Below, in pieces: positions 7,793 through 25,348 of a DNA stretch of 64,000 nt. The position numbers and the translations under genes are program-made. Source of the stretch: Escherichia coli (lineage in GTDB: Bacteria; Pseudomonadota; Gammaproteobacteria; Enterobacterales; Enterobacteriaceae); the NCBI RefSeq assembly GCF_013122565.1, contig NZ_CP053258.1. One strand, given 5' to 3'. Position 1 is the first letter of the stretch; each line of letters opens with the position of its first letter. The notes under the pieces are model-generated. The model was not told the origin of the DNA, did no database searches, and was given only the letters and a program-made list of their open reading frames with translations.

Positions 7793-7795
7793 AAT

Positions 7796-7999: not shown

Positions 8000-8526
8000 C
8001 AGATAAGCTCCACTGTGCAGTGCGGCGCATCCTGTACCCGGCAGATGGCCCAGCGGGCGTCACGCCACAAATCACCGCTGGCTTCTGCCAGTTCCTCGCC
8101 CCGCTTCACACCGGATGCCGTGGCGTCATAGTCCTGGTAACGTTCGTTGAGCATGGCGCGAGCCCAGCAGTAAACCGCGTTGAAATAGTGCTGAATTCGC
8201 TCGCTTTTCCCGTCCAGCTGTTCCGCCGGAACCTCTGCCAGCGAGGCATATCCCAGCATCTGCTGGCGTCTGCGAAACTCATACAGCTCTGCGTTGACCT
8301 CCGAAATTGCCGACAGCGCAACCTGCTTTAAACGCGGCTGCGTCACCGTGCCGTCAGTGCGCATCACACTGCGAAACTCCGACAGGTCCACATCAGGCCA
8401 GAACGGCGTATTTCTGATGATTTCCGCCTGTTCCGGTGCCTGTTCTGGCGCAACAAACTTCATGCTGCTTTCTCCTGAAATAGAGGGCGGTGGACGGGGT
8501 TTTGATGTGGCAGTGCCTTTCGCCAC
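7999..8526 (-). CDS. Capsid completion protein (P2 gpL-like)
   Basis: 175 aa; C-terminal ...DLWRDARWAICRVQDAPHCTVELI resembles gpL. Confidence 0.8.
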   Translation of the reverse strand: MAKGTATSKPRPPPSISGESSMKFVAPEQAPEQAEIIRNTPFWPDVDLSEFRSVMRTDGTVTQPRLKQVALSAISEVNAELYEFRRRQQMLGYASLAEVPAEQLDGKSERIQHYFNAVYCWARAMLNERYQDYDATASGVKRGEELAEASGDLWRDARWAICRVQDAPHCTVELI

Positions 8527-8558
8527 CCCGTGCCGCCCGTGCGCGGGGGCACGTTCTG

Positions 8559-9209
8559 TCAGCGGCTGTCATTGCGCAGTCTGCGCTCCAGCTGCTGTTT
8601 GTCTTTTTTCACGCCACAGCGGGGATCGAGCTGTAACGCATGGTTGAGATGATTAAGGGCGGAAGCCGGATTGCTTTCACTCAGGACAGCGCCAATCGCT
8701 TTATGCAGACGCGCCCGTGACTGGTCCGGCATATCCAGACCGTCTGTCAGCTCCAGCGTCTGCAGCAACAGATCGGCATCAAAGCCGGTGGCGGCAAGCA
8801 TTGCGCTCTGCGCGGCGTCTGCCATTTCCTCTGCCAGCACGGTCTGCACGTTGCGGTTACCCAGCGGCATCACCCAGCCATGACGCAGGGCATGACGCCC
8901 GATCTCCAGCGCCCCGGCATAATCTCCGGCATCAATACGCCACAGCATCACGTACATCAGCACGTCATCCTGTTGAGCGCCTCCGGCAGCCAGGACACCC
9001 TCTGCCCAGGCGGCGTACTTCGGCAGCAGCTCCACCTTGATTTCCGCTTTTTTGACCGTGGACTGAACGCCCTTGAGACGGCGGCGGTCTTCCGCCAGTT
9101 GCAGCAGCATCAGGTCATAGCCCGATGCGTGGCGAACACTGCCGCCCTCGCGGGCGGCCTGTTCAGCCTGAACGCGCAGGCGATGCTGCCGTGCGGGACT
9201 CAGGCTCAT
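8559..9209 (-). CDS. Terminase small (endonuclease) subunit (P2 gpM-like)
   Basis: 216 aa; synteny between N and L. Confidence 0.8.
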   Translation of the reverse strand: MSLSPARQHRLRVQAEQAAREGGSVRHASGYDLMLLQLAEDRRRLKGVQSTVKKAEIKVELLPKYAAWAEGVLAAGGAQQDDVLMYVMLWRIDAGDYAGALEIGRHALRHGWVMPLGNRNVQTVLAEEMADAAQSAMLAATGFDADLLLQTLELTDGLDMPDQSRARLHKAIGAVLSESNPASALNHLNHALQLDPRCGVKKDKQQLERRLRNDSR

Positions 9210-9212
9210 GGA

Positions 9213-10271
9213 TTACGCTCCGGTTTCGGCTGCGGCGGCGCTGAAATCACCAATCTGGATATTTTCCACCAGTGCGGCGCAGCGGTAGTCCTCAACCACA
9301 TAGGCTTCGTTAACGGATTCAAAGTTTTCAATCCGGTCACGTTTCGGGTTGTCGATAACTGAACGGCGGCGGGTGTCTTCCTGCCAGTAGATGGACAGGT
9401 TATCCAGACGGGTGATCAGCAGCGCATTCGGCGGGAAGAACGGCGCACGCACGGCCTGCAGGCCACCCATGCGTTTCTGACTGATGATCATATCGGCAGC
9501 CAGTTTTTCACTGTTTTCCTGCTCTTTGTTGACCAGCGGGAAATACTTGTCAGACAGCAGTTCACGACCGCAAATCACCACCAGATCGTCATCGTCCTGG
9601 TAGACCACGTCGATAAGCTCATTGACGGCATCCATCACCACGGCGTCCAGGTTGGCATATTCGCCACCTTTCCCGACTTTCACTGCGCCCGGTGTGGTTT
9701 CACCGCCCGTGGTGGTGCTGCCCATGACGTGATCCGGTGCATCCTCACGGATTTTCTGCAGCCAGCCTTTATTCACATCCTGCAGTAGCGGGTTTTCGCT
9801 ACGGTTGGAGGTTTTCGCACGCTTCACGCCGTTAAAGCCGATCATGATGCGGTCCAGTGCCTGACGTTTCACGATGGCGTCACGGATACGCACCTGAAAA
9901 TCCTGAAACTTCGCCCACAGGTCCAGCTTCGCGTAGGTCAGCACCGTGTCAAAGTTGGTCTGCTCGCATTTATATTCCACATCGACCATCAGCGTCGGAT
10001 CGACAGGTTCACGCTCTTTCGCGGTGGTATCAGTGGTTCCGGCAATGGTGCTGCCAACTCCCAGCCCCAGCAGCTGACCGGACTGCTCAGTCACTGGCGT
10101 GACGTTAATCAGCGTCAGGAAAGCGGCGGACTGCTGGATCTGGTCTTCCAGCGTCTGCTGCACAGACGGCTCCACGGTGAATTTGCTGGACAGTTCTTCA
10201 ACTGCCACACCGTTCAGACGCGCCAGCTGCTGCAGGTAAGCGTTAAAAGCAAAGCGGGTATTCTTCTTCAT
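9213..10271 (-). CDS. Major capsid protein (P2 gpN-like)
   Basis: 352 aa; synteny O-N-M. Confidence 0.9.
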   Translation of the reverse strand: MKKNTRFAFNAYLQQLARLNGVAVEELSSKFTVEPSVQQTLEDQIQQSAAFLTLINVTPVTEQSGQLLGLGVGSTIAGTTDTTAKEREPVDPTLMVDVEYKCEQTNFDTVLTYAKLDLWAKFQDFQVRIRDAIVKRQALDRIMIGFNGVKRAKTSNRSENPLLQDVNKGWLQKIREDAPDHVMGSTTTGGETTPGAVKVGKGGEYANLDAVVMDAVNELIDVVYQDDDDLVVICGRELLSDKYFPLVNKEQENSEKLAADMIISQKRMGGLQAVRAPFFPPNALLITRLDNLSIYWQEDTRRRSVIDNPKRDRIENFESVNEAYVVEDYRCAALVENIQIGDFSAAAAETGA

Positions 10272-10287
10272 CGGGTTTTGTGCTCCA

Positions 10288-11121
10288 TCAGCAATTGGTC
10301 AGAGTGTCAGCGGGGGCGTTACCGCCTGTTGCACGCTGGCGGTAGTCCTGGCGGCTGTCTTCATGACTTAGCTTGTCCACCAGTTCGTTAAAGGCGGTCA
10401 GCTGTGCCTGCAGGGCAGTCTCCAGCTCAGACAGGCGTTCTTCCTGCTCAGACAGGGATTTTTCGGTGCGTGCGCTCAGGTTCTGCTGCTCAGTGGCGAC
10501 CAGCTCCACGGCCTTATGCACATCAGAGAACCGGGCGTCATCGGACTGCTCTTTTTTGGTAAACAGCGCCGTGACGCGGGCAAACAGGGACGGTTTGTCG
10601 TCTTGGATTTCTTCCAGTTCGATCACCGTTTCCTCTGCAGCGGTAAAGAGATTGGCAGGATTCTGCTTGCGGTTTGCCAGCGGGTTATGGGCTGCACTGG
10701 CGCTGAATGTCAGCATTTCCGTACCCAGACTGGCAGGGTCATCAGTGGCAGCCAGGCCGACCAGGTAGGCTTTGCCCGTATCAGCGAACTTCGGGCTGAC
10801 TTCCATAGAGGTGAATAATTTCTGGCCTTTTTTCACCAGTTCCACCAGGGACTCCGTTGGCTCAACGTCGGCATACAGCGCCATCTTGCCTGCCAGCGGA
10901 CCTTCCGTGATTTCTTCAGCAAACAGCGCCGTCACCTTGCCGTAGCGGTTAAAGGTGCTGTCCGGCAGATAAGACTTGATGTGCTCAAGGTTAATCAGCG
11001 CGGTATACACCGCCGGGTTGTAGCTGGCTGCCATCTGTTCCAGCCATTCACGCTGGATTTCGCGTCCGTCGGTGGTGGCACCTTCCACCCCGATGCGAAA
11101 ACGCTTTGCTTTCACTGTCAT
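10288..11121 (-). CDS. Capsid scaffolding protein (P2 gpO-like)
   Basis: 277 aa; acidic/coiled-coil C-terminal part; divergent from P. Confidence 0.85.
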   Translation of the reverse strand: MTVKAKRFRIGVEGATTDGREIQREWLEQMAASYNPAVYTALINLEHIKSYLPDSTFNRYGKVTALFAEEITEGPLAGKMALYADVEPTESLVELVKKGQKLFTSMEVSPKFADTGKAYLVGLAATDDPASLGTEMLTFSASAAHNPLANRKQNPANLFTAAEETVIELEEIQDDKPSLFARVTALFTKKEQSDDARFSDVHKAVELVATEQQNLSARTEKSLSEQEERLSELETALQAQLTAFNELVDKLSHEDSRQDYRQRATGGNAPADTLTNC

Positions 11122-11199
11122 GAGCCGTGCTCCGTTAGAAAAAACTTACTGGAGCCTTATGGTTGCGGTGATGGGGGCAGTGAAACAATGCGCGGTATT

Positions 11200-11217
11200 T
11201 GTACCGACAACCACACA
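11200..11217. promoter_or_regulatory. TGT-N12-ACA dyad in the divergent O/P late promoter region
   Basis: tgtaccgacaaccacaca, about 80 bp upstream of the O start codon. Confidence 0.35.
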
Positions 11218-11263
11218 AACCGCAGGCGGGGAAAGCCTTCATTCAAGGCTGTAGGTTTGTGCC

Positions 11264-13030
11264 ATGAACACCACACTGACACCCGCAGATCTCGATCCCC
11301 GTCGGCAGGCCATGCTGCTGTACTTTCAGGGATACCGCGTAGCCCGCATTGCTGAAATGCTGGGCGAGAAAGTTGCAACCGTTCACAGCTGGAAAAAACG
11401 CGACAAGTGGGGTGACTATGGGCCGCTGGATCAGATGCAGCTCACCACCGCCGCACGCTACTGCCAGCTCATCATGAAGGAGCACAAAGAAGGGAAAGAT
11501 TTCAAAGAGATTGACCTGCTGGCGCGCCAGTCTGAGCGCCACGCGCGGATCGGCAAGTTTAACAATGGCGGCAACGAATCCGACTTAAACCCTAACGTCG
11601 CCAACCGCAACAAAGGCCCACGCCGTCAGCCGGAAAAGAATGTTTTCACCGATGAGCAGATTGAGAAGCTGGAAGAAATCTTCCATTCCTCCATGTTCAA
11701 CTACCAGCGCCACTGGTGGGAAGCCGGAAAAACCAACCGCATCCGCAACCTGCTGAAGTCACGCCAGATCGGCGCGACCTTTTACTTTGCCCGTGAAGCC
11801 CTGATTGACGCCCTGCTGACCGGACGTAACCAGATTTTCCTTTCCGCCAGCAAGGCACAGGCCCACGTCTTTAAGCAGTACATCATCGACTTCGCCAAAG
11901 AAGTGGAGGTGGAGTTGAAAGGCGATCCGATGGTGCTTCCTAACGGGGCCACGCTTTACTTCCTCGGCACCAATGCCCGCACGGCCCAGAGTTATCACGG
12001 CAACCTGTATCTGGATGAATATTTCTGGATACCGAAATTCCAGGAGCTGCGCAAAGTGGCTTCCGGTATGGCTATTCACAAGAAATGGCGACAAACCTAT
12101 TTTTCCACGCCATCCAGCCTGACACACAGTGCTTATCCGTTCTGGTCCGGTGCGCTATTCAACCGTGGGCGCAACAAAGCCGATAAGGTGGACATCGACC
12201 TGTCCCACAGCAATCTGGCCCCCGGCCTGCTGTGCGCAGACGGGCAATACCGCCAGATTGTCACCGTGGAAGATGCAGTGCGCGGCGGATGTAACCTGTT
12301 CGACCTCGATCAGTTACGCATGGAGTACAGCCCGGACGAATACCAGAACCTGCTGATGTGCGAGTTTGTGGACGATCTCGCGTCTGTGTTCCCACTCAGC
12401 GAGCTGCAGGCGTGCATGGTGGACAGCTGGGAAGTCTGGACCGACTTTCATGCACTGGCACTGCGCCCATTTGGCTGGCGCGAAGTGTGGATCGGTTATG
12501 ACCCGGCGAAAGGTACGCAGAACGGCGACAGTGCCGGATGCGTGGTGGTGGCACCGCCAGCCGTGCCGGGCGGCAAGTTCCGCATTCTTGAGCGTTACCA
12601 GTGGCGCGGGATGGACTTTCGCGCCCAGGCTGACGCCATCAAAAAACTGACCGAACAGTACAACGTGACCTATATCGGCATCGACTCAACCGGCGTTGGT
12701 CACGGGGTTTATGAGAACGTGAAAGCGTTCTTTCCTGCCGTCCGGGAGTTTGTCTACAACCCCAACGTTAAAAACGCCCTGGTACTCAAGGCCTACGACA
12801 TTATCAGCCACCGCCGTCTGGAGTTTGACGCCGGGCACACCGACATTGCGCAGTCATTCATGGCAATCCGTCGCGCCACCACCGCCAGTGGCAACCGCCC
12901 GACCTATGAAGCCAGCCGCAGCGAAGAAGCCAGCCACGCCGATCTGGCCTGGGCAACGATGCACGCACTGTTTAACGAACCGCTGCAGGGCGAATCCGCC
13001 AATACCAGCAATATTGTGGAGATTTTTTGA
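11264..13030 (+). CDS. Terminase large (ATPase) subunit (P2 gpP-like)
   Basis: 588 aa; divergent from O as in P2. Confidence 0.9.
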   Translation: MNTTLTPADLDPRRQAMLLYFQGYRVARIAEMLGEKVATVHSWKKRDKWGDYGPLDQMQLTTAARYCQLIMKEHKEGKDFKEIDLLARQSERHARIGKFNNGGNESDLNPNVANRNKGPRRQPEKNVFTDEQIEKLEEIFHSSMFNYQRHWWEAGKTNRIRNLLKSRQIGATFYFAREALIDALLTGRNQIFLSASKAQAHVFKQYIIDFAKEVEVELKGDPMVLPNGATLYFLGTNARTAQSYHGNLYLDEYFWIPKFQELRKVASGMAIHKKWRQTYFSTPSSLTHSAYPFWSGALFNRGRNKADKVDIDLSHSNLAPGLLCADGQYRQIVTVEDAVRGGCNLFDLDQLRMEYSPDEYQNLLMCEFVDDLASVFPLSELQACMVDSWEVWTDFHALALRPFGWREVWIGYDPAKGTQNGDSAGCVVVAPPAVPGGKFRILERYQWRGMDFRAQADAIKKLTEQYNVTYIGIDSTGVGHGVYENVKAFFPAVREFVYNPNVKNALVLKAYDIISHRRLEFDAGHTDIAQSFMAIRRATTASGNRPTYEASRSEEASHADLAWATMHALFNEPLQGESANTSNIVEIF

Positions 13031-14064
13031 TGGGAAAGAGTAAGAAGAACCGAGCTGCGGCGACGAAACAGATCCAGCTTAAAAGTCAAACTACAGCCGA
13101 AGCATTCAGCTTCGGCGATCCCGTTCCTGTTCTGGACCGCCGAGAATTACTGGACTATGTGGAATGCGTACAGATGGACCGTTGGTATGAGCCGCCCGTC
13201 AGCTTTGACGGACTGGCGCGCACCTTCCGCGCTGCAGTGCATCACAGTTCCCCGATTGCAGTAAAGTGCAACATTCTGACCAGTACCTACATCCCTCACC
13301 CGCTGCTCAGCCAGCAGGCTTTTTCACGTTTTGTGCAGGACTATCTGGTATTTGGTAACGCCTACCTGGAGAAACGCACGAACCGATTCGGTGAAGTTAT
13401 CGCCCTTGAGCCTGTGCTGGCAAAATACACCCGACGCGGGTTAGACCTGGATACCTACTGGTTTGTGCAATACGGCATGACTACACAGCCGTATCAGTTC
13501 ACGAAAGGCAGCATTTTTCACCTGATGGAACCGGATATCAACCAAGAGATCTACGGCCTGCCCGGTTATCTTTCTGCCATTCCGTCAGCCCTGCTCAACG
13601 AGTCCGCCACGCTGTTCCGCCGCAAGTATTACATTAACGGCAGCCACGCAGGCTTCATCATGTACATGACCGACGCCGCGCAGAACCAGGAGGATGTAAA
13701 CAACCTCCGTAACGCGATGAAAAGCGCCAAAGGACCAGGCAACTTCCGTAACCTGTTTATGTACTCGCCGAACGGCAAAAAGGACGGGCTTCAGATCATC
13801 CCATTGTCTGAAGTCGCGGCAAAGGATGAGTTTCTGAATATCAAAAATGTTAGTCGCGATGACATGATGGCGGCACACCGCGTGCCGCCGCAAATGATGG
13901 GGATTATGCCTAATAATGTTGGGGGGTTTGGGGATGTGGAGAAAGCGAGTATGGTATTTGTGAGGAATGAATTAATTCCTCTACAAAGGCGTTTAGAAGA
14001 GCTTAATTTGTGGCTAGAAGAGGAAGCCATAAAATTCAAACCATACAATTTATCAGATAATTAG
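13027..14064 (+). CDS. Portal protein (P2 gpQ-like)
   Basis: 345 aa; ATGA overlap with P. Confidence 0.9.
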   Translation: MMGKSKKNRAAATKQIQLKSQTTAEAFSFGDPVPVLDRRELLDYVECVQMDRWYEPPVSFDGLARTFRAAVHHSSPIAVKCNILTSTYIPHPLLSQQAFSRFVQDYLVFGNAYLEKRTNRFGEVIALEPVLAKYTRRGLDLDTYWFVQYGMTTQPYQFTKGSIFHLMEPDINQEIYGLPGYLSAIPSALLNESATLFRRKYYINGSHAGFIMYMTDAAQNQEDVNNLRNAMKSAKGPGNFRNLFMYSPNGKKDGLQIIPLSEVAAKDEFLNIKNVSRDDMMAAHRVPPQMMGIMPNNVGGFGDVEKASMVFVRNELIPLQRRLEELNLWLEEEAIKFKPYNLSDN

Positions 14065-14108: not shown

Positions 14109-15869
14109 CTATATGCTGCATATTTTTTTATAATGTTCAAAAACATCTTTAAAAGTGTTGAGTATTATTTCAAAACCACTAAAATCAACTTTTCGTTTTT
14201 TATCCCTAACTACTTTCACAGAGAAAACATGTTTCCCATATTCAGTTTTTGAGTCCCCATCGTTCTTTTTGTTAAATTTTTTACCACCAAGAATAGTTGA
14301 TAATACATCATGAGTAAAAAGATCTTCCATCGCAGTCTGCTCACCAGTAGCACTTAAAGGCGTTAGAATGATATAGAGATTTTTAAAGACATGGATAAAT
14401 CTCATTTTTCTCATTTTATTGGTATCATCGGGGCAGCTCTTAACATTATTTTTAAGGAAATTCAAAATCTCATTAGAACCAGAATCGTTGTCCAATACCA
14501 TGATAACCGGGTGCTTAGGAATGCTTCCATAGTAGCTTGAATATTCATCCATATATCTTTCGATGAATTTTTTAAGATCTGCGCTACCTCCAGACATATT
14601 AATAAAATAACTTGACTTCTCATCAGATTTAAAAATATTCAAGTTGATATCATTTCCTTTACCGTCTGTGCTTTTCTTGAGCAACTCAGGAAATTTGGCA
14701 GAAAGTGAACGAATAGCTGATTTTAAATATACTCGATCAGTTTTGCCTTCTGTCAAGATTGTCGGGGAAGCATGTCCATGAAAAAACTTGTAGTAAATAA
14801 ATTTACTATATGCCTTCTCTCGTACATTCAGCTTTAACCTGTAGTTTTTTAATGTAATATGAATAGGCGCATATTTTTCAGGCTGTTTACTTATTTTATC
14901 TTGTATGTTATTAAATTTATCAATCTGGTCAATAAACCCAAATCTTCCCTCTAGTTTTTCGATACTCCCCACGACTAGCTTACCATCTTCATCAGGTAGC
15001 TTATATTCTCCCTTACTATAAAGTGAATGAGCTAATGCTCTTGTTTTATTCGAATATTTCCTATCAACGTTAACAAATCTATTTATAGTAAGTCCCGTAA
15101 CTTCTTGTCTCGTGGATTTGTACGAGATCCTTGTTTTAGCATCATTAATATCAAAACCAGCACGTTTTATTTCACTGACAAGAATGCTCCCCAAGACAAC
15201 CCCCTCAGGAAGAGATATTGCCAAATCGGTAGGAAATTCTTTTTTATTAGTTGAAAACGTGATGTCATCGGCATAACGACTATATGAACAACCTAAACTC
15301 TTTGCTAATTTAGCTAATCTAATATCCATAATGCTACAAATTAAGTTTGTTATCACTGGAGAACACGGGCTACCCTGAGGCAAACTTCCCTTATAGCATG
15401 CGGCTTTAGCTAAAGTAGTGGCGACAATCGGATTTAATAAGAAATCCCTATTGGATAGGAAGTACCCTCTCACTCGCCCAAAATTAAAGCTTTTGAAAAA
15501 ATCCTTAAGATCAATATTGAGTATTATATTTTTCCCACGATGTCTGAAAGCATTGGAAATTATTGACTTATTTCTTTCAAAACCAAAGGAGTAATTGTTT
15601 TTAATTTTTTTAATTTTGAAAGTTTCATCTCTACACTCCATTAAAAGATCGGCTATTCGTCTTTGGAGATCTTTCAAACTATCTTCTGGCGCAGAAATCA
15701 ATCTGACTCCCTTACCTTTTTTTGGAATAGAGAAATCTTTATACTGATTATCAGTACCAATTCTGTAAAGAATATTCGTTAAAAACACCAACTTAACATC
15801 TAGCAATTTTGCCAAGTCAGCACGAGATGCTGCGACTTTCAAAAGTAGTAATTTAGAAGTTGCGACCAT
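14109..15869 (-). CDS. ret: Retron reverse transcriptase with C-terminal TOPRIM domain (RT-TOPRIM fusion; consistent with retron-Ec67 / Retron-Eco2 RT)
   Basis: 586 aa; RT motifs [23 protein letters not shown] (res 199-202); TOPRIM-like TEGKTD (373-378) and VLDNDSG (458-464); strongly AT-rich. Confidence 0.9.
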
Positions 15870-15904: not shown

Positions 15905-16040
15905 AGAACGCATGTAGGCACTCCTTCGCACAGCACAACGGCCCTATAGCGACGAAACAAGGATGTCAGGGATGCGATTCCACCTGCCATTAAAATCACT
16001 GGTTGTGATACACAACCAACAAATCTGCCTACATGCGCAT
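15905..16040 (-). ncRNA. msr-msd: Retron msr-msd-like non-coding RNA locus flanked by a1/a2 inverted repeats
   Basis: 12-bp inverted repeat cgcatgtaggca at 15909-15920 and 16026-16037 with about 105 bp between them; internal hairpin ggttgtg-tat-cacaacc; a2 lies 40 nt upstream of the RT start. Confidence 0.5.
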
Positions 16041-16108: not shown

Positions 16109-16127
16109 CTCGTATCCCCGCCACGCC
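16109..16127 (-). other. Candidate cos cohesive-end site
   Basis: Minus-strand GGCGTGGCGGGGATACGAG; first 13 nt match the 186/P2 cohesive end as I recall it (GGCGTGGCGGGGA...). Confidence 0.4.
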
Positions 16128-16171
16128 TGCCCGCTTTATGTAGTGGTTTTCATGCAGGTGCATGATCTACG

Positions 16172-16196
16172 CAAAAGCCCGCCAGTTCTGGCGGGC
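16172..16196 (-). terminator. Rho-independent terminator ending the A/tum early transcript
   Basis: Stem gcccgccag/tggcgggc with T-tract on the minus strand. Confidence 0.55.
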
Positions 16197-16469
16197 CTTA
16201 GCAAAAACGATCCTCAAACGATCATGCAATCTCATGCAGCATAGACATGCACAGACGAGTAAAGCGAATCGGACCTTACGCAAGGTGAACTCCTCAGCGG
16301 GCATAATCAGTATGTCGGAAGATCTCTAAAAATAAATAATTCGGTTAACAGGTATGCTTACAAAAGCATATATTTGATTAAAAATCATGTAAGGGGGAGG
16401 ATCTCAAACTGAATCGCCACGGGTTTTACAAATTTCGATAGTCTCTCTAACGTTTCGGCTGAGGTCAAA

Positions 16470-16895
16470 ATGAAAAGCTTTTACGTATTAATTTTAATTC
16501 TGGTTGCAAGCTTTGTTAGCGTCCCAGTTCAGGCGGTAACAGCTAAAAACTATGAGAAAGGAACTAAAGCTCAACAGAAATCAATATCTTACCTTTCATG
16601 TGCATTCTATGGCAGTAGCACACAATTAGATCCTAGCTACACGGAGCAAGTACCTACAGCCGATATCAAGATATTACAGAAAGCAGCTTACCACGCTTAC
16701 AACGATGCGCTCTCATACTTTGGCTATGAGGAACCAGATCACGAACAACGCATAATTGATTATGCTGAATTTGTGGCGTCGCAAGAAGCTGTGTTATGGG
16801 ATAAGCCGGGAATGAATGGAAAGCAGGTAACACTAATTGCTCGTTCTCTCTACAATGAGAGTAACTGTAACTTGTTACTGGACTCAATTAAGTAG
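16470..16895 (+). CDS. AT-rich cargo gene: small secreted protein of unknown function
   Basis: 141 aa; signal peptide MKSFYVLILILVASFVSVPVQA; GAGG RBS; low GC. Confidence 0.7.
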   Translation: MKSFYVLILILVASFVSVPVQAVTAKNYEKGTKAQQKSISYLSCAFYGSSTQLDPSYTEQVPTADIKILQKAAYHAYNDALSYFGYEEPDHEQRIIDYAEFVASQEAVLWDKPGMNGKQVTLIARSLYNESNCNLLLDSIK

Positions 16896-17054: not shown

Positions 17055-17288
17055 TTAATGCAGCCAGCTGTCGTCTTCCCACACCTTCTGCATAATCTTC
17101 ATCACTTGTTTTCTTTCTTCGTCCAGTTGCAGTCCGGTCAGTTCCACACCGTTAGAGCTACCTTTGCGGATGCGAATTACCGTTTTGGGATACAGGGGGC
17201 GCAGATTGCGGTAAAGCTCGGATTCAAGGGCGTCCAGGGTAGACTGGCTAATCTTCTGCTCTTTATCGATCATTATTTCAATGCGCAT
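17055..17288 (-). CDS. DinI-family protein (Tum antirepressor C-terminal-domain-like)
   Basis: Start trimmed to MRIEIMIDKEQ... (GAGGTG RBS); pattern MRIE...LDALESEL...WEDDSW resembles DinI. Confidence 0.7.
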   Translation of the reverse strand: MRIEIMIDKEQKISQSTLDALESELYRNLRPLYPKTVIRIRKGSSNGVELTGLQLDEERKQVMKIMQKVWEDDSWLH

Positions 17289-17298
17289 AAAGGTCACC

Positions 17299-17487
17299 TC
17301 AGCTGATGACATCCATTGAGCGGTTGTATTCGTGGGTTCTGATTTTTGCCATGAGTTCATCAGTCAATTCAGAAACCCACTGCAGAGCCAGCCCCTTCTC
17401 TTCATCACTACACTCACTAGCCGCTACAAGCTTAAGAAAAAAATCAATGCGCTGGAGCTTCAAAGACTCCAAAAAATAGTCCTGCAT
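17299..17487 (-). CDS. Small protein upstream of DinI-like ORF (possible N-terminal part of a Tum-like antirepressor)
   Basis: 62 aa; directly downstream of a LexA box; separated from the DinI ORF by a frame change. Confidence 0.5.
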   Translation of the reverse strand: MQDYFLESLKLQRIDFFLKLVAASECSDEEKGLALQWVSELTDELMAKIRTHEYNRSMDVIS

Positions 17488-17639: not shown

Positions 17640-20054
17640 TTAATACAGGTTCCGCCACTTATCATCTTCCTGCAAACGCTGGTTCCGATAGAAGATACGC
17701 AGGCCTGCTCCTGACGGAATACTGCCGCCGCGAAGGAGTAAATCGACCTCTTTCTCGCTGCCATCAAATCCTCTGGACTTCAGTTCATAGACGAGCTGCT
17801 GTCGCTGATGGTCTGTAATTCGCTGTTTGTAGTCTTTACGCCGTTTCGGTTTCACCAGGCGTAACCTTGCAGCCAGTTCCCGGCGCTCTTTTTTGCTCAT
17901 ACTGTGCAGGTATTCGTGCAACTCCTTGTCATCCATGCGGGTAATGTCCGTTCTGGTATCCCCATCAGCTGATTTGTCTTTCCCTTGTTGGTTCAAATTT
18001 TCAGCAAGGGGACAGTTATTGCCACGAGTCCAAGGGGCGCAAGCGCCCTGGTCGGCTACCGCCTCCTGAACGTCAACGGCTTTACGAACCATTTTCCACT
18101 TCACTGCATGAGTGCAGATCTTGCCCTCTGCAATGGGTGACCAGATGCCATAAATACGAATGCCGTGATCGCCATAGGCGGTCGGCTCTTCGTTAATTTC
18201 ATAAGCAGTTCTGATGAGGTGATATTTGCGGGGAACCAGTACGCCGCCCTGCTTCATGATGTAAGTGGCAAAACAACCAGCATCAGCAGCAGCCAGGATT
18301 GCATCAAGGCGCGGGTTATCCAGTACCGGCGCACCTGCTTTTTTGTCCCCCTGTTGCCTTGCCGCCTGACCAGCCAACAATCGCAGTTCACGGTAAGCCT
18401 GACGCCCCGGAATGCCAAAGAAGCGGAATTGCTGAACACGATGCAAAGACGCCCAGGCATTCACGTATTCAGCGTTATCACGCAGAGATTTACCCGTTTC
18501 CTTGCTGATCTCGCCAGCCAGACCACGCCCGTCAATGTTCTTACTGATGTATTTCGCGATGTAGCTTGTTGGCGTACCTTTGCGCGGGTTTATCAGCTCA
18601 GACTTAAAGCGTGGTCCCGTGTTATTACCCAGCTCCTCGCGGTCTTCACGAATGGCAAACTTACGCAACAAAGCAGTAATGGCTCGGCGATCTTTTTTGC
18701 GCATAAAACACAACAGGTGCCAGTGCACTGTACCGTCATGATGCGGCTCAGCCACCCGCACGCCATACCAGCGCAATCCGGCTTTGTGCATCGCTTTACG
18801 AAATGCAGCAAACATGCCGACCAGATAATCACTGCTTTGTCTTACCGTCGCGTTTGTCCAGGTCGGGTTTGGTCTGCCGTTATTTAGCGTGGAATGGAAA
18901 CGTGACGGACAGGTGATGGTGTAGAAAACGGCGCAGTCACCGCGCATTTCCGCGATAAGCTCCAGACCTTTAACACAGGCCATCATCTCATTGCGGCGAT
19001 GCGCAGGGTTGCTGCTGCTGGCGTTTACCACGTCTTCCATATCCAGCGTGTCGCCGTCTTCGTTCACCAGTTCATGAGAACGAAAAAACTCCAGCGACTT
19101 ACGGCGCTGCTCACGTTTATGCATCACGGCTTCATAGCTGACATAGGGAGATGCTTTTTTGCTGACCAGGCAGACAGCGCGCAACTGCTCTTCCCGCCAT
19201 TCGCAACGCATCTTCCATAATTTCCGATACCACCAGTCGGCGCACAACATACGCGCCAGCGAACCCGGAATGAGTTCATAGGGCACGGGTTTACGGCGGT
19301 TTCTTTTCCGGCGGAGTTGCTCAAACGCAGGTGGGATGACATCCAGTCGCAGGGTTTCTGCTGCCACCCTTTCCCATGTCTTGCGGATTTCTTCTGGCTT
19401 AACGTCATCGGTGGCATACAAATCGCCACAAGCTGCATCAAGGCACATGCTCATATGCGCAGCTACCAGGGTGGACAGGCGTTTCACCTGATCCTGACTC
19501 ATTTCAGGCAGGATCAGCAGGCCGTCCAGCCCTTCCTGGCTCGCCATAAAGCGAAAAGCAGTGGATAGCTGACTGTCGCGTACATGCTCCAGCCGTTCCA
19601 GACATGGCTTAATCGTCTCACGCAAATAGCGGGAATAAGCCTTTGGCCTGCCCAGGCTGCTGAAGTATTCAATACGTTGCATCAGCGGCTTGCTGATATG
19701 GGAAGGCTGGGCGTTAACGTCCGCCAGAATGACCATGTCTGGATTAAAACGCTGCTGCTCATGCGCCAGCTTTGCCCGGCTAATGAGCTTATCCTGCTCT
19801 ATTTCGCGTTGGACAGGATCACGGGATTCATTAAAGAAATAACGCTCCCAGACCTGATCACTCAGAGCCTCGCGGCGCAGTTGTTCCTGCTCGTTATCGG
19901 CAGCGTACAGAGTGATCAGGTTTGAAAGCGCAGAAACCGGCGCAACTTCCGCCGGGTCCAGATAAGGGTTAATGGCCTTTTTCGGGCTGTTCCATGAGAA
20001 TGCTGCGGCGACCTCGTTAAAGCCGCTGCAGTTGTTCATATCATCATGGCTCAT
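17640..20054 (-). CDS. Replication initiation protein (P2 gpA-like rolling-circle nickase)
   Basis: 804 aa; position downstream of early genes; stop/start overlap with the methylase gene. Confidence 0.9.
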
Positions 20055-20908
20055 GCACGCACTCCGTACATGGCAGAACTATCCACGCCACGCGAAGGAT
20101 CAAATCCCACCCAGCAGCGCGCCCCGGAAACAGCAATGATTTCTGTTGCAGATTTACTCTCGCCAGCCGACACGCCGATGCTGCGTTTTGCCTTGATGTA
20201 GTGGTGAGTGAAATTGCGATACAGCGAACGAATCAGGGATGTGTCACTGTTAGAAACAATGACCGGATGTCCTTCAGATGCTCGATGTTCAAGAACGGAT
20301 GCCAGGTGATACTGGTCATCTTCAGTGAAACCATCAGTGTGATAGCCGGAAAACGTACCGTCATACGGCGGATCGCAATACACCACATCCCCCGCCTTCA
20401 ACATCGCCAGCGTTTCATCAAAGCTGGCGCAGATAAACGTTGCCCGCTGGGCTTTTTCTGCAAATGCGCGAATTTCTTTTTCAGGGAAATACGGATTTTT
20501 ATAATTACCGTAGGGAATGTTGAAATGCCCGCTCTTGTTATAGCGACATAAACCACGGTAACCGTGACGATTGAGATACAGGAAATATACCGCTTTCATG
20601 AAATCAGTAATTTCAGTGGAGTAATTAAACTCCTGCCTTATGTTGTAATAAGCCACCTCCCTGTTTGCGATCTCAAATAAAACTCTGGCGCGAGATATAA
20701 ACGATTCACAATCAGCGGCAACCTTTTTATAGAGGTTGATTAAATCAAGATTAATATCCGCAACCAGATAGCTTGGATAATCCGTCTCCATCATCACAGC
20801 ACAGGAACCCGCGAAAGGTTCAACCAGTCGCGGGCCAGCAGGAAGGTGTTTTTTCAGTTCGGACATAATTGCGGTTTTATTTCCCGCCCATTTCAGGATG
20901 GTGCTCAT
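20051..20908 (-). CDS. DNA adenine methyltransferase (Dam family, orphan)
   Basis: Start trimmed to [11 protein letters not shown]; motif I-like FAGSCAV and motif IV DPPY (VYCDPPYDG). Confidence 0.85.
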
Positions 20909-21132
20909 ACAGCACCTCCGTTGTAATGTTTGCCTTTCAGCTCTGCGATTTCCTGACAGGTAATGCAAAGCTGCACTCCCGGAATGGCGCGGCGTCGTGC
21001 TGGCGGAATTGGCGCTTCACATTCAATGCAAAGTACGCGTGACACGCCCGGTGATTTGGCACGGGCTGCACGGATATGGCGCTGGCGTTCTTCTTCAACG
21101 CGCTGCTGTACGAGATCCATTGCATCAGCCAT
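20905..21132 (-). CDS. DksA/TraR-family C4 zinc-finger protein
   Basis: 75 aa; CIECEAPIPPARRRAIPGVQLCITCQ (CxxC-N17-CxxC). Confidence 0.75.
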   Translation of the reverse strand: MADAMDLVQQRVEEERQRHIRAARAKSPGVSRVLCIECEAPIPPARRRAIPGVQLCITCQEIAELKGKHYNGGAV

Positions 21133-21371
21133 TAGTGGATCTCCTGCGCTTCGTTCTGGATTGCTTCAGCAGTGACACGCAGCAGTTCTGCCGCTTCGAC
21201 GTGGTTTAGCTGGCGGGATGTGATATGACACGCCAGGCTATCAAGGCGAGCTGCCATTGCTTCAGCCCTTGCCCGGCGCTCTTCCAGACGAGCCTCTGTC
21301 AGTAAAATATTAAGCCCTGCGTCATCCGGTCCGGTTTTAGTCGTGAGGGTTTCAATATTACGCATAATCAA
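21132..21371 (-). CDS. Hypothetical phage early protein
   Basis: 79 aa ORF in early operon, start/stop overlap with the downstream gene. Confidence 0.5.
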   Translation of the reverse strand: MIMRNIETLTTKTGPDDAGLNILLTEARLEERRARAEAMAARLDSLACHITSRQLNHVEAAELLRVTAEAIQNEAQEIH

Positions 21372-21432: not shown

Positions 21433-21774
21433 TTAATTCGGCATGGTTAGCCGTCTGGGAAATAAGCTCACCACTGCACGAAAATGATTCATTGCTTTAA
21501 TCAGCTCCCGCTTTTCGTCAGTGGTCAGCTCATTAATGCTGATGCTATGACGTTCAGCTGGAATTTTTGCCATAAAGAATATAGCAGCTAGTGCCCGTTT
21601 ATTTTGTTCATTATTGATATCCCGTGGATCACGCATATCTTTAATAAACCGCTCAAGCTCTGACTCAATATTCAGGCCAAAAACTTTCGCCCTTAATTCC
21701 GCTATGTGATTAAGTCCATTCAGGCGTTCACCGGGGCTTAATGGAACAGTCGCCGCAGCGCCATTAATTGCCAT
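21433..21774 (-). CDS. Hypothetical phage early protein
   Basis: 113 aa ORF in early operon. Confidence 0.5.
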   Translation of the reverse strand: MAINGAAATVPLSPGERLNGLNHIAELRAKVFGLNIESELERFIKDMRDPRDINNEQNKRALAAIFFMAKIPAERHSISINELTTDEKRELIKAMNHFRAVVSLFPRRLTMPN

Positions 21775-21796: not shown

Positions 21797-22021
21797 CTAT
21801 CGTTCTTTGTTCTTACGGTAACGTTCAAGAGGAGATACATTTTTTCGTATCGTCTCTTTAACCTGCTCTCCCCGTAAAAACGTCCCATCCTTTAACGCGA
21901 AAAAGTAACTGCCATCGCCCGACAATGACGGATAGCAACAGAGCAAATCATCTTCAGGTACTGAATAACTCTCCCCTCTGTAACGAAACTGATAAACCAC
22001 TTCACTTTCTGCCGCATACAT
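21797..22021 (-). CDS. Hypothetical phage early protein (overlaps next ORF in another frame; one of the two may be spurious)
   Basis: 74 aa ORF. Confidence 0.3.
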   Translation of the reverse strand: MYAAESEVVYQFRYRGESYSVPEDDLLCCYPSLSGDGSYFFALKDGTFLRGEQVKETIRKNVSPLERYRKNKER

Positions 22022-22195: not shown

Positions 22196-22705
22196 TCACA
22201 GCAAACCGAATGAAGCACCGAGGCCAGTCACGGTATCAACTGCACTCGCCATCGCAGGGTTAGCCTGTAAACGGGCCTGCAATGAAACAGCAGCCAACGC
22301 CATCAGTCGTGTTACAGAGTTAATGCTGCTGATAGCATCACGACGACCTGCACTGGTTTTTACATCGCCAGATACCGCACCTGCAGCAACACGCCCGATC
22401 TCTGCGGTTGCACTCATGACGTAATGTGGCAGTTTCTCTTTTGCCACCTCATTAATCGGTACGCATGGCAGGCAGTGAATCTGAGCCAGAAAACCATCTA
22501 CCAGCGTTGAATCTTCAGTCAGATCGGTAAGCAGCCAGATTTCTGGTGCGGTTAATAAATGAGGTTGAGCCGGGTTCAGCTTGTTCCGCAGAATCTGCAC
22601 ATTCATGCCAGCACGTTCTGCCAGTTGCACCAGGTTGTGGCGCAGCGCGAATGCACGACAGGCTTCATCAAAATGTGGATGTTTGGAAACTTGGTAATCA
22701 AACAT
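22196..22705 (-). CDS. cII: CII-like transcriptional activator (phage 186 CII family)
   Basis: Start trimmed to [24 protein letters not shown]...; resembles 186 CII as recalled. Confidence 0.7.
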
Positions 22706-22737: not shown

Positions 22738-22959
22738 CTAGTTGAATACAACATTGCAATCAGTAAGTGCATCAACGGTAAGAGCAGCAAGGTTGATCAT
22801 TACTTTTTCTCTTTTCTTGTCTTTACGAAGACGATGCCGAGGAATGCGACCATCCGCCAACATATCGTTGATTGTGTCGATTGAAAGACCAGTAAGTTCG
22901 CTATAACGCTCGATTGTGACGTGTGGCGTATTCAGAGTTATTGAAATGTTAGGGGTCAT
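22738..22959 (-). CDS. apl: Apl/Cox-like excisionase and lytic-switch regulator (HTH)
   Basis: Start trimmed to [33 protein letters not shown]...; divergent from cI-like gene. Confidence 0.6.
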
Positions 22960-23024: not shown

Positions 23025-23054
23025 CAAAACTGATACTAGGATCGCAAAAGAGAT

Positions 23055-23651
23055 ATGTCAACATCAAAGTACCCAAGTGAGATCAAAATAAATCCCAATA
23101 AAGGTGGTAAGGCTGCGATTGAGCGATTAGTCGAAGCCTATGGCTTTACGACACGACAGGCTTTAGCTGATCACTTGGAAGTATCAAAAAGCACACTAGC
23201 GAACAGGTATTTGCGGGATACATTTCCTGCTGACTGGATAATCCAATGTGCTCTTGAAACAGGAACCTCCCTCAAATGGTTAACTACCGGACAAGGCCTT
23301 AAGCAAAGCTCGCTGACAGCAGCTACAGAAGAGCTTGTTAAGTTTCGCCTTGCCGCAGGCAAAATGATTGAAGACGGTTCATATGTCTTCGATTCATCAT
23401 TTCTTCCTGCAAACCTTTCATCACCAATTGTTATTCAGGATGGACTCGTCACATACATTTGTGATCAAAAATTTTCTGAAGTACTTGATGGAAACTGGTT
23501 AATCAATATCGACGGAACCTATTCCATTCGAAAAATCACAAGGCTTCCTAAAGGAATGATTAAAATTACAACAGCAGAGAATAGCTTTGAATGTGCATTT
23601 TCTGATATTGAAGTGGTTGCTTGTATAAGAAGTACAATAGTCTCGAATTAA
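23055..23651 (+). CDS. cI: CI-like immunity repressor (186 CI type)
   Basis: 198 aa; position between switch region and int; N-terminal HTH-like segment. Confidence 0.7.
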   Translation: MSTSKYPSEIKINPNKGGKAAIERLVEAYGFTTRQALADHLEVSKSTLANRYLRDTFPADWIIQCALETGTSLKWLTTGQGLKQSSLTAATEELVKFRLAAGKMIEDGSYVFDSSFLPANLSSPIVIQDGLVTYICDQKFSEVLDGNWLINIDGTYSIRKITRLPKGMIKITTAENSFECAFSDIEVVACIRSTIVSN

Positions 23652-23671: not shown

Positions 23672-25348
23672 ATGAATTCATTTGCCATCGTTATACTCTT
23701 ATTAGCATTTCTCGCCCCTGTTCTAGCTGTAATATTATTTAAACAAAGTAAAAAACACAAAGCGGCTATAGATAACCTGACAGCTAACAACATAGCCCTT
23801 TCTAACCAACTGATTGAAAATCAAGAAAAACTAGCACAGACCGTACGAGAATTATCAGATCTTGAAGGGCGAGCAGCACCATTGTGGCAATACGAAGAAT
23901 TGCACAGCGCAGTAATGGATGCAGAGAATAAGATAAAAAATGCGGACTCAATAGCCAAGCAAAAAATAGATGAAGCCCAAATTAAGGCGGCTAAAACAGT
24001 AAACGAAGCAAATTATCAAGCTCAGATAACAATAAGCAACGCTAATAGCGAAGCTATAGCAATCACCAAAGACGCTCGCGATGCACGCCTGAAAGCCAAA
24101 GAACGTCTTGATAATGCTAATAATAAAGCAAATGAGCTAATCTCAAATGCTAATGACAATGCAGTAAAAATTATTTCTGATGCAGAAGAAAGAGCAAAGG
24201 AGATTGCTGGTTCAGCATATGAAGCTAAAGAGTTTGCAGAAAAATATGAAGCAGTTGCAAAATCAATGAAAAATAAAATTGAAGGTTATGGTGATGAATG
24301 GATCATCCCTAACCGTAGTGTACTTGATGAGCTGGCAGAAAATTATGAATTTACAGATGCAGGCAAGGAATTACAAAAAGCCAGAGAGTTAACCAAATCA
24401 TTAATAAAAACTAATAAAGCTGCTTCGTGTGATTATGTTGAGCAAAACAGGCGTAATACTGCCATAAACTTTGTTTTGGATGCCTTCAATGGAAGAGTTG
24501 ACAGTATTTTATCAAAAGTCAAACACAACAATTTTGGAAAACTTTCCCAAGAAATAAAAGATGCATTTCAACTAGTAAATTACAATGGCTCTGCCTTTAG
24601 GTCCGCAAAAATAAGTGACATCTATCTTCAGGCAAGACTCAACGAGCTAAAATGGGGTGTAGCAGTTAATGAAATTATGCTCGAAGAAAAAGAAGAGCAA
24701 AGAAGGATTAAAGAACAGCTTCGTGAAGAGGAAAGAGCTCGTAGAGAATATGAAAAAGCGATAAAAGAAGCTGAAAAAGAAGAAAAAGCTATTCAGCAAG
24801 CTATAAATAAAGCAACGAAAGAACTTATGCTTGCAAATGAAGAACAACGCTTAGCTTTAGAGCAAAAAATAGCTGAACTACAGTTAAAATATGAAGAAGC
24901 TGAAGCTAAAAATCAACGAGCTATTTCTATGGCTCAACAAACCAGATCAGGCCACGTCTATATCATTAGTAATATTGGTTCATTTGGCGAAGATGTATAT
25001 AAAATTGGAATGACACGCCGCCTTGAACCACTTGATCGTGTTCGTGAACTCGGAGATGCTAGTGTTCCTTTTTCGTTCGATGTTCATGCGATGATTTATA
25101 GTGATGATGCACCATCATTAGAAAACCATCTGCATAAAGTTTTCAACGAAAAGCAGGTCAATAAAATTAACTCACGAAAAGAGTTTTTTAACGTAAATTT
25201 AAAAGAAATCAAATCAGTTATTGAAGACATGAACATCAACGCCCACTGGACAATGTTTGCAGAGGCGAAAGAATATAGAGAGTCTCTAGCTATTGAGCAG
25301 GAGCGCAAAGCAGCCACTTCCGCCAACGATGAACTACATGTTGCTTAG
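23672..25348 (+). CDS. AT-rich cargo gene: membrane-anchored coiled-coil protein with C-terminal T5orf172 (GIY-YIG-like) domain; DUF4041-type architecture; defense candidate
   Basis: 558 aa; N-terminal TM helix, long K/E/A-rich coiled coils, C-terminal GHVYIISNIGSFGEDVYKIGMTRRLEPLDRVRELGDASVPFSFDV; co-directional with cI and int. Confidence 0.85.
   Translation: MNSFAIVILLLAFLAPVLAVILFKQSKKHKAAIDNLTANNIALSNQLIENQEKLAQTVRELSDLEGRAAPLWQYEELHSAVMDAENKIKNADSIAKQKIDEAQIKAAKTVNEANYQAQITISNANSEAIAITKDARDARLKAKERLDNANNKANELISNANDNAVKIISDAEERAKEIAGSAYEAKEFAEKYEAVAKSMKNKIEGYGDEWIIPNRSVLDELAENYEFTDAGKELQKARELTKSLIKTNKAASCDYVEQNRRNTAINFVLDAFNGRVDSILSKVKHNNFGKLSQEIKDAFQLVNYNGSAFRSAKISDIYLQARLNELKWGVAVNEIMLEEKEEQRRIKEQLREEERARREYEKAIKEAEKEEKAIQQAINKATKELMLANEEQRLALEQKIAELQLKYEEAEAKNQRAISMAQQTRSGHVYIISNIGSFGEDVYKIGMTRRLEPLDRVRELGDASVPFSFDVHAMIYSDDAPSLENHLHKVFNEKQVNKINSRKEFFNVNLKEIKSVIEDMNINAHWTMFAEAKEYRESLAIEQERKAATSANDELHVA

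Follow-up and report, generated by a model that had tools for sequence, protein, structure and literature searches.

Solitary DNA adenine methyltransferases (Dam) are encoded by a range of phages. Among these enzymes, T4 Dam, P1/P7 Dam, and the Dams of SEN4, SW3, and ESSI-2 are all D12-class orphans. The P1 enzyme is proven to function in pac cleavage. Several P2-like genera carry Dam in the early operon 5′ of replication gene A; it is directly adjacent to gene A in ESSI-2, and SEN4 and SW3 have a C5-cytosine methylase between the two.

The small TraR-like proteins are a second family of relevance. [quoted passage not shown] In the same work, P2 Orf82 bound RNAP at the DksA site and inhibited rrnB P1 with an IC50 of 250 nM, Orf73 needed residues D3 and D6, and Orf82, which does not have A8, was active but weaker, with loss of A8 suggested as the cause.

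A Dam open reading frame (ORF) was reported in the 34-kb Ec67 element by Hsu et al. (1990, PNAS 87:9454), who, in the account given in PMC7826664, treated the reverse transcriptase (RT) and Dam as components of a single element. Dodd & Egan (1996), as described in citing papers, showed that the retron had replaced DNA in a 186-related prophage. A full-text literature search on the Eco67 Dam or P2-like orphan Dam found no specific report; one paper on Salmonella Dam and prophage reintegration (PMC12455584) was set aside as concerning ST64B and the host Dam.

The locus analyzed here lies in a 64,000-nucleotide stretch of Escherichia coli DNA (contig NZ_CP053258.1), called the window below, which holds a 186-like (Peduoviridae) prophage carrying a retron Ec67-type element. 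A TraR/DksA-type zinc-finger gene and a Dam gene sit directly upstream of gene A. They are ordinary, already described accessory genes of a P2/186-type E. coli prophage. The pair is probably best read as two standard accessory genes of the pR operon: a GATC-specific Dam that protects phage DNA, held in a variable slot and part of the phage backbone, and a TraR-like RNAP factor.

Layout of the early operon

The operon and the genes that frame it are laid out as follows.

17640..20054 (−), replication gene A, a rolling-circle initiator/nickase of 804 aa (PF05840, E = 8e-128)
18012..18039 (−), predicted ori/nick region within gene A (A offset 2016–2043), placed with blastn from the ori contexts of P2 and 186, by similarity only
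20051..20908 (−), solitary Dam-family N6-adenine DNA methyltransferase of 285 aa, predicted target GATC (PF02086, TIGR00571, and alignment to E. coli Dam, EcoDam)
20905..21132 (−), TraR/DksA-family C4 zinc-finger protein of 75 aa (PF01258, TIGR02419, phrog_54)
21132..21371 (−), DUF2732 gene, homolog of P2 orf80 and 186 CP80 (PF10809, E = 3e-29; synteny with P2 and 186)
21433..21774 (−), DUF5347 early gene (PF17282, E = 3.7e-33)
21797..22021 (−), small early gene (phrog_4312), with a DUF2724 or Fil-like annotation at the same place in relatives
22196..22705 (−), cII-like regulator of 169 aa (PF06892, E = 3e-42)
22738..22959 (−), apl/cox-like gene of 73 aa that opens the early operon, with a 222-bp homolog annotated in relatives; the same as "ORFA in retron EC67"
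23033..23061 (−), predicted pR-like early lytic promoter, TTGACA-17-TAGTAT, a consensus match only, at the same position as 186 pR
23055..23651 (+), divergent cI-like repressor gene, facing the pR-like promoter

The order apl-cII-fil-DUF5347-DUF2732-zinc finger-slot-A matches that of phage 186, and comparison with the annotated P2 and 186 records and with Klebsiella and E. coli relatives identifies a P2/186-type early operon divergent from the repressor gene. The initial annotation had placed the methylase and zinc-finger genes in the early operon next to gene A, and both the location and the adjacency hold. Gene A itself has an HUH-type motif and the AKYISKN sequence conserved with the A proteins of P2 and 186. 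The zinc-finger gene directly follows the DUF2732 gene here and in 186, whereas P2 has orf81 between them.

Stop and start codons overlap at three successive junctions, with TAATG between the DUF2732 and zinc-finger genes and ATGA both between the zinc-finger gene and Dam and between Dam and gene A. The initial annotation had described the genes as translationally coupled; the overlaps at the two Dam junctions are there in the sequence, and coupling itself would be consistent with them. The 186 record states that translation of A appears to need translation through the end of the preceding gene. A counterpart of the 186 terminator tM1 was not found in the 5′ end of gene A, and the minus strand from 21400 to 20900 contains no internal promoter able to express Dam in a lysogen.

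Between the zinc-finger gene and gene A, P2-like phages have a variable cargo slot that often holds DNA-modification enzymes. Relatives also have C5-cytosine methylases, PAPS-reductase-type genes, and further methylases at this point. The Dam ORF in the slot starts with the ATG at 20908–20906 (−), with GGAGGTG 4 nt 5′ of it, and the TTG at 20968 proposed by the ORF lister is not the true start. An antisense ORF over Dam (20201–20551) was also rejected, as stop codons interrupt it in 76 of 77 relatives. No restriction enzyme was found within the prophage portion of the window, where all neighbors and all large ORFs are identified phage genes (the left end of the prophage lies beyond the window).

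The zinc-finger and Dam proteins

The zinc-finger protein scores above the cut-offs of both PF01258 (E = 3.1e-11, 43.5 bits against 24.9) and the TraR family model TIGR02419 (66.2 bits against 59.7), and it falls below that for the F-plasmid TraR ortholog, NF010268 (40.3 bits against 108). It is 68% identical to the 186 protein, 46% to P2 Orf82, and 39% to F TraR, and it matches TraR–RNAP complexes in the PDB (5w1s, 6n57). Alignment shows invariant D3, D6, C35, C38, C56, and C59, the four cysteines being the zinc-binding residues. The protein resembles P2 Orf82, 186 CP81, lambda Orf73, and F-plasmid TraR in length, in having a C4 zinc finger, and in the N-terminal D3/D6, and it is the positional homolog of P2 Orf82 and 186 CP81. 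It is predicted to bind the RNAP secondary channel in the manner of TraR. By analogy with P2 Orf82 and lambda Orf73, it may mimic DksA with ppGpp, turning rRNA promoters down and amino-acid promoters up during lytic growth.

In the N-terminal DxxDxA tip motif, which in the TraR subfamily extends to the RNAP active site, D3 and D6 are present and position 8 is Val in place of Ala. Given the proposed effect of A8 loss in P2 Orf82, this Val is a point against the TraR-like reading.

Dam matches the Pfam D12 N6-adenine methyltransferase family (PF02086) over the whole profile (positions 1–253 of 253; E = 1.9e-75, 254 bits, cut-off 22) and the Dam family model TIGR00571 at 322 bits (cut-off 114.85). 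It is 47.5% identical to E. coli Dam over 255 aligned residues (E = 1e-73), and with EcoDam structures available (PDB 2G1P, 4GOL, and others), its fold can be taken as settled by identity to solved structures. The fold family, the catalytic residues, and most of the GATC-contact residues are common to the two enzymes. The window Dam differs from EcoDam by N120R, G39C, a 5-residue deletion after DPPY, and a different C-terminal tail, and also in its control, which is by the phage operon here and chromosomal for EcoDam. The score against the housekeeping dam equivalog, NF008152, is 287.9 bits and below the cut-off of 441; the window Dam is thus, as judged by profile scores, a member of the family and not an ortholog of chromosomal dam. 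Identity to the other phage solitary Dams named above is 22–50%. PADLOC gives "orphan methyltransferase" (oMTase) as its best model.

The alignment of eight diverse Dams has 57 invariant columns, which include all catalytic residues. Catalytic motif IV, DPPY, is D179-P180-P181-Y182, and in the AdoMet-binding motif I, E30-P31-F32-A-G34 is invariant at its named residues, as is the acidic D51 closing strand 2. Motif I (FxGxG) has Cys here in place of its second Gly, at a position that varies among phage Dams. Positions kept from EcoDam are K9, W10, the AdoMet-binding D54, Y119, L122, R124, P134, Y138, DPPY, and R249. Six of the seven EcoDam residues that contact GATC (K9, Y119, N120, L122, R124, P134, Y138; roles from PMC4417163) are identical in the window Dam, the exception being N120, which is Arg. 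This conservation supports GATC specificity, short of proof. EcoDam N120 hydrogen-bonds a base (PMC4417163), and an altered flank or site preference is possible because of N120R together with the Gly-to-Cys change in motif I. The initial annotation had called the two genes an orphan DPPY-motif adenine methylase and a TraR/DksA zinc-finger ORF, with conservation of the methylase motifs left to alignment, and the profile scores and invariant residues agree with it on each point.

That Dam is a decayed, inactive gene or a miscalled frame is extremely improbable. Such a reading could draw on the two changed EcoDam positions and on the host Dam, which makes the phage gene dispensable. The full-length profile match and the invariant catalytic residues argue against it, as do its membership in a 90%-identity cluster of 4038 proteins and the GATC footprint described below. 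Across 38 relatives, variation at codon positions 1, 2, and 3 is 0.048, 0.032, and 0.134; the concentration of changes at third positions is typical of purifying selection, and the reading frame is real.

GATC content and possible roles of phage methylation

In P2-like lineages, the observed-to-expected ratio (O/E) of GATC is 0.22–0.48 without Dam and 0.56–1.06 with it, compared to 0.82 in the host flank. The median is 0.80 in 76 Dam-carrying loci of the window type; among Dam-less loci, it is 0.25 in 80 of the P2 type and 0.33 in 80 of the 186 type. The median number of GATC sites in gene A follows suit, at 8, 0, and 2, respectively. Six further Dam-carrying genera span 0.56–1.06, and the Dam-less PSP3 and P88 stand at 0.22 and 0.48. 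The groups do not overlap (exact Mann-Whitney p = 0.006 at the lineage level, with few independent lineages and kinship ignored), and the Dam-carrying ESSI-2 (0.56) and the Dam-less P88 (0.48) come close together. Among the 16 four-base palindromes, GATC is the only one that differs between groups.

GATC is counterselected in enterobacteriophages through the action of MutH on unmethylated DNA (McClelland 1984; Deschavanne & Radman 1991, as cited in PMC5014478). The contrast between groups fits an active phage Dam that methylates replicating DNA and lifts this known selection. As a correlation, it also allows for reverse causality, in which GATC-rich phages might need Dam. The statistics support the hypothesis of protective methylation maintenance and are neutral on a timing role. 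The functions suggested in the initial annotation, anti-restriction and the timing of replication or packaging, are still hypothetical.

The phage Dam is formally redundant because an E. coli host already has Dam. In the protective reading, the phage enzyme would be an active solitary SAM-dependent GATC N6-adenine methyltransferase that is transcribed only upon infection or induction, with its translation tied to that of replication protein A. Dam would therefore be present just when rolling-circle replication outruns the limited host Dam. It would maintain full methylation of progeny DNA, so that GATC avoidance would no longer be needed.

Phage orphan methylases are classically read as anti-restriction functions. 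Here Dam would premethylate progeny against GATC cutters of the MboI/DpnII/Sau3AI type in the next host, with no role for MutH. The other methylases and PAPS-reductase-type genes of the slot resemble an anti-restriction toolkit, and restriction pressure would equally yield GATC depletion in Dam-less relatives. However, Escherichia, Klebsiella, and Salmonella, the known hosts, all have a Dam of their own, and phage DNA is therefore already at least partly protected; moreover, the published cause of GATC avoidance, as relayed in PMC5014478, is a MutH-dependent drop in yield when phage DNA is unmethylated. GATC under-representation as a sign of restriction avoidance was rejected for this prophage because O/E is 0.82 in prophage and host flank alike. 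Purely anti-restriction methylation is rather unlikely, and the two kinds of protection are mutually compatible and inseparable by sequence.

A regulatory or timing role, in which methylated GATC sites near cos, ori, or promoters time packaging, replication, or transcription as at P1 pac, turns on the sites themselves.

16109..16127 (−), cos cohesive-end sequence (GGCGTGGCGGGG...), a motif match whose 5′ 12-mer is the same as in the P2/186-type cos of relatives
16164..16223 (−), three GATC sites at −96, −85, and −40 from cos

The sites take the form of two GATCGTTT repeats with an 11-bp spacing (the GATC pair at window 16209 and 16220), followed by a rho-independent terminator hairpin and then by the third GATC, so that the sites flank the hairpin. 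Of 75 Dam-carrying relatives, 71 have two or more GATC sites in the 150 bp preceding cos, and most carry the −96/−85 pair; Dam-less clades have 0–1 in the same interval save for 4 of 150 loci. Two further sites lie 80–130 bp from the predicted ori. Against a timing role, the relatives are closely related and the conserved pair thus counts as one evolutionary observation, and P2 and 186 package and replicate without a phage Dam and with 0–1 GATC near cos. Gene A holds 9 GATC sites, and clustering at the predicted ori was rejected, as the density there is ordinary for this phage. We know of no protein that reads the cos-proximal or ori sites, which also counts against timing, and of no role of the pac-cleavage type for the window Dam. 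A timing function is accordingly considered improbable.

One specific form of the idea is that, in Dam-carrying P2-like phages, the conserved pair of GATCGTTT repeats, one helical turn apart, 85–96 bp upstream of cos and next to the terminator, works as a switch that depends on Dam. The pair would be read when methylated or hemimethylated, coupling replication status to cos cleavage and packaging or to transcriptional read-through across cos. This is an improbable proposal. If it were true, read-through across cos would here enter the retron msr-msd-RT unit. More broadly, the repeated gains of Dam in Peduoviridae would then be a natural experiment showing that a phage with its own methylase is released from GATC avoidance.

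Retron Ec67 and the wider meaning

The retron in the window is of the Ec67 type (type I-C, RT-Toprim), with an RT of 586 aa, and lies 4 kb from Dam. At the DNA level, the RT region is only ~88% identical to the Ec67-family retrons of complete E. coli genomes. Scanning the full window against Rfam at gathering thresholds gave no match, retron noncoding RNA included. The window Dam is 96% identical to the database protein "retron EC67 DNA adenine methylase," the comparison that the initial annotation had proposed, and the Dam of the Ec67/Eco2 element is likewise 285 aa long. The Ec67/Eco2 prophage is also of the same type, with the retron between cos and the portal gene and a host flank of mdfA/ybjJ/dacC/deoR.

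This raises the question of whether Dam belongs to the retron and controls it, for example, through three GATC sites 130–190 bp upstream of msr, sites that Hsu et al. reportedly noted upstream of msr-msd-RT. The proximity of the two and their treatment as a single element in 1990 speak for such a link. The zinc finger–Dam module is carried by 1240 of 5426 complete E. coli genomes, however, and only 13 of the 1240 have the RT adjacent; Dam is therefore phage backbone and not retron cargo. Klebsiella and Salmonella phages carry the module with other cargo, the GATC sites are a conserved cos-proximal backbone feature also in relatives without a retron, and the replacement event attributed to Dodd & Egan points the same way. 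Retron control by Dam is largely refuted by the distribution of the module and is very unlikely. The statement in the initial annotation that the Ec67 element encodes a Dam was correct; the gene belongs to the prophage backbone instead of the retron.

Both genes are routinely annotated and occur in roughly one in four complete E. coli genomes; with Dam described since 1990 and the Orf82-type TraR homolog since 2022, the finding itself carries little weight. It does clarify that the "retron Ec67 Dam" belongs to the backbone of the host prophage and is not retron cargo. It also brings out that GATC is three- to five-fold depleted in Dam-less P2-like phages and near the host level in Dam-carrying ones. 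This comparative signal supports the old account of GATC avoidance through MutH and undermethylation, and 186 or P2 set against this phage offers a tractable pair for testing it.

The early operon and its cargo position

About 1-26500 of the window is a 186-like (Peduoviridae) prophage, with P2-type tail, lysis, head, terminase and portal genes at 171-14064; the flank is E. coli chromosome with mdfA, ybjJ, dacC and deoR. The early region follows the order of 186, with apl, cII, a fil-like gene, DUF5347, DUF2732, a zinc-finger gene and, beyond a slot, replication gene A. A consensus-like predicted pR promoter (23061-23033) lies opposite the divergent cI-like gene, after which comes the integrase gene. 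Between the cI-like repressor and integrase genes is a 558-aa gene (23672-25348, plus strand) that matches the PD-Lambda-1 anti-phage defence model (E = 3e-120) and is a second defence cargo of this prophage. The observed/expected (O/E) frequency of CTAG is 0.77 in the prophage (1-26500) and 0.08 in the host flank (26501-64000), a compositional sign of a prophage not ameliorated to the CTAG avoidance of its host. The gene run that ends in A is as follows.

21132-21371, minus strand: DUF2732 gene
20905-21132, minus strand: zinc-finger gene, 75 aa; PF01258 (DksA/TraR zinc finger), E = 3.1e-11 (Pfam); TIGR02419, 66.2 bits (NCBIfam, phage/plasmid TraR family)
20051-20908, minus strand: methylase (Dam) gene, 285 aa; PF02086 (D12 N6-adenine methyltransferase), E = 1.9e-75 (Pfam); TIGR00571, 322 bits (NCBIfam, Dam family)
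17640-20054, minus strand: replication gene A, 804 aa; PF05840, E = 8e-128 (Pfam)

Stop and start codons overlap along all four genes (TAATG at DUF2732/zinc finger, ATGA at zinc finger/Dam and at Dam/A), and the Shine-Dalgarno sequence of every downstream start lies within the preceding gene. That of the methylase, GGAGGTG, is 4 nt 5' of the ATG at 20908, and the TTG at 20968 chosen by the ORF lister is therefore rejected as the start. According to the 186 record, translation of A apparently needs translation through the end of the gene preceding it, and the overlap of Dam and A would be consistent with the same coupling.

The initial annotation described a DPPY-motif N6-adenine methylase and a TraR/DksA-type zinc finger beside gene A, and the Pfam, NCBIfam and junction reads agree with it; its descriptive details are all correct. 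These include the lack of an adjacent restriction enzyme: no restriction endonuclease was found beside the methylase or elsewhere in the window's prophage DNA, and the best PADLOC model for the methylase is "orphan methyltransferase".

The slot before A differs among relatives. Where the window prophage has Dam, 186 has a DnaQ-like exonuclease, a DUF5405 gene and a PAPS-reductase gene, and P2 has only the DUF5405 gene. Among 80 IMG/VR relatives of the window gene A, 76 have Dam in the slot, usually abutting both neighbours, and two have the zinc-finger gene without Dam. Some also carry a PAPS reductase, a C5-cytosine methylase, a DUF3850/ASCH gene or a 263-aa gene with no Pfam match (L046 4788-5798, L075 5091-6299, L080 4998-6149, L026 5516-5818, L050 3356-4147). 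Other P2-like genera likewise have an early-operon Dam on the upstream side of A: in ESSI-2 it is directly adjacent, and in SEN4 and SW3 a C5-cytosine methylase lies between Dam and A. These contents make the slot a variable cargo site, often with DNA-modification enzymes. The Salmonella P2-like SEN4 (L249 26561-32049) and SW3 (L250 3392-9238) have three methylase genes around A, the third being a "DNA methylase" downstream.

The methylase and zinc-finger proteins

The methylase is 47.5% identical over 255 residues to chromosomal E. coli Dam (EcoDam), whose structure is solved (E = 1e-73). It conserves the catalytic DPPY (residues 179-182), the N-terminal KWxGxK motif, and the AdoMet pocket E-P-F-x-G with the acidic D51. 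Six of the seven EcoDam GATC-contact residues, whose roles are described in PMC4417163, are kept (K9, Y119, L122, R124, P134 and Y138); the departures are Arg at N120 and Cys at the second glycine of motif I. When EcoDam and the Dams of six further P2-like phages (40-68% identical) are aligned with it, 57 columns are invariant and cover all of these positions except the two departures, so the motif loss that would have counted against the initial annotation is not seen. Across the 38 relatives with ungapped, full-length matches to the gene, substitutions fall mostly at third codon positions (0.048, 0.032 and 0.134 at positions 1, 2 and 3), and a 116-codon antisense ORF within the gene is interrupted by stops in 76 of 77 relatives. 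The DPPY codons themselves, GAT CCG CCG TAT (window 20363-20374), include one GATC site.

Identity of the zinc-finger protein is 68% with its positional counterpart in 186, 46% with P2 Orf82 and 39% with F-plasmid TraR, the TraR N-terminus used here agreeing with the residue numbering of PMC9239242. The alignment shows no change at D3, D6 or any of the four cysteines, and the zinc-finger protein matches the TraR chains of solved TraR–RNA polymerase complexes. Position 8 of DxxDxA is Val and not Ala, as in P2 Orf82, the weaker protein. Purified P2 Orf82 binds at the DksA site of RNA polymerase and represses rrnB P1 with an IC50 of 250 nM; Orf82 also makes good the defect of a dksA mutant, and its lambda homologue needs D3 and D6 (PMC9239242). 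By analogy with Orf82, the zinc-finger protein would most likely reprogram host transcription during lytic growth.

Relation to the Ec67 retron

The initial annotation linked the methylase to a Dam encoded by the Ec67 retron element. Hsu, Inouye and Inouye (1990), as quoted in PMC7826664, did report a Dam ORF within the 34-kb element. The exact window methylase is WP_171459588.1, and its 90%-identity cluster (4038 members) includes one protein named "retron EC67 DNA adenine methylase", to which it is 96% identical. An Ec67/Eco2-type retron is also inserted in the window, with cos on one side and the portal gene on the other.

14109-15869, minus strand: retron RT-Toprim, type I-C, 586 aa; PADLOC RT-Toprim_I-C, E = 6e-213
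about 15909-16030, minus strand: retron msr-msd, flanked by inverted repeats CGCATGTAGGCA / TGCCTACATGCG, with a CAGA branch context

The branch context is that given for Ec67 in the review PMC6868368. No Rfam family matched the window retron, and at the DNA level it shares only about 88% identity with Ec67-family retrons of complete E. coli genomes. Of 5426 complete E. coli genomes, 1240 have the zinc finger–Dam module (nucleotide identity of at least 90%), but the reverse transcriptase adjoins it in only 13 of these, and Dam as a retron gene is rejected. The module also occurs in Klebsiella and Salmonella phages with other cargo. Dam thus belongs to the prophage and not to the retron, in agreement with Dodd and Egan (1996), who, as described in citing papers, found that the retron replaced DNA of a 186-related prophage. 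With this correction, the interpretation in the initial annotation is supported. The Dam/zinc-finger pair has been described before and is very common.

GATC sites and Dam carriage

Two GATC sites lie 80-130 bp from the predicted origin (about 18012-18039, located by comparison with P2 and 186), which is unremarkable for this phage. Upstream of cos (16127-16109) are three, at -96, -85 and -40; in 16164-16223, two GATCGTTT repeats 11 bp apart are followed by a rho-independent terminator hairpin and the third GATC. At least two GATC sites lie within 150 bp upstream of cos in 71 of 75 Dam-carrying relatives, the -96/-85 pair being the commonest arrangement, against 0-1 in the Dam-less P2 and 186 clades (save 4 of 150 loci). 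These sites are phage backbone and not retron, and in this one closely related clade they suggest a possible regulatory role. The 1990 abstract of Hsu et al. reportedly mentions "three GATC in the RT promoter region", which we take to be probably this trio. Nearby are a 141-aa protein gene (16470-16895, plus strand; signal-peptide-like N-terminus, phrog_7437) between cos and a DinI/Tum-like gene (17055-17360, minus strand), and a small phrog_698 gene (17299-17487, minus strand).

Table. GATC O/E, with the Markov expectation GAT x ATC / AT.
Window prophage: 0.82
Window host flank: 0.82
76 window-type-clade loci with Dam: median 0.80 (range 0.67-0.97)
Six further genera with Dam: 0.56-1.06
P2 right 9 kb, Dam-less: 0.33
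186 right 9.6 kb, Dam-less: 0.20
80 P2-type loci, Dam-less: median 0.25
80 186-type loci, Dam-less: median 0.33
PSP3, Dam-less: 0.22
P88, Dam-less: 0.48

P2-like lineages without Dam are three- to five-fold depleted in GATC, whereas those with Dam are near the host level (loci L004-L243 and L244-L253). The seven Dam-carrying and four Dam-less lineages do not overlap (exact Mann-Whitney p = 0.006, ignoring kinship among few independent lineages), and GATC alone among the 16 four-base palindromes differs between the groups. Within gene A, the median GATC count is 8 in the window-type clade, 2 in the 186 type and 0 in the P2 type. McClelland (1984) and Deschavanne and Radman (1991), as cited in PMC5014478, put GATC counterselection in enterobacteriophages down to the action of MutH on phage DNA lacking methylation, and the contrast is the pattern expected from those accounts. 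MboI/DpnII-type restriction would give the same footprint. Given the contrast and the published counterselection, upkeep of methylation by the phage Dam is the best-supported mechanism, with a causal direction that we infer: Dam would be produced together with the replication protein and so may keep the fast-replicating phage DNA methylated. The contrast between Dam carriage and GATC depletion in P2-like phages, the sole modestly new result here, bears out a long-standing hypothesis and does not raise a new one.
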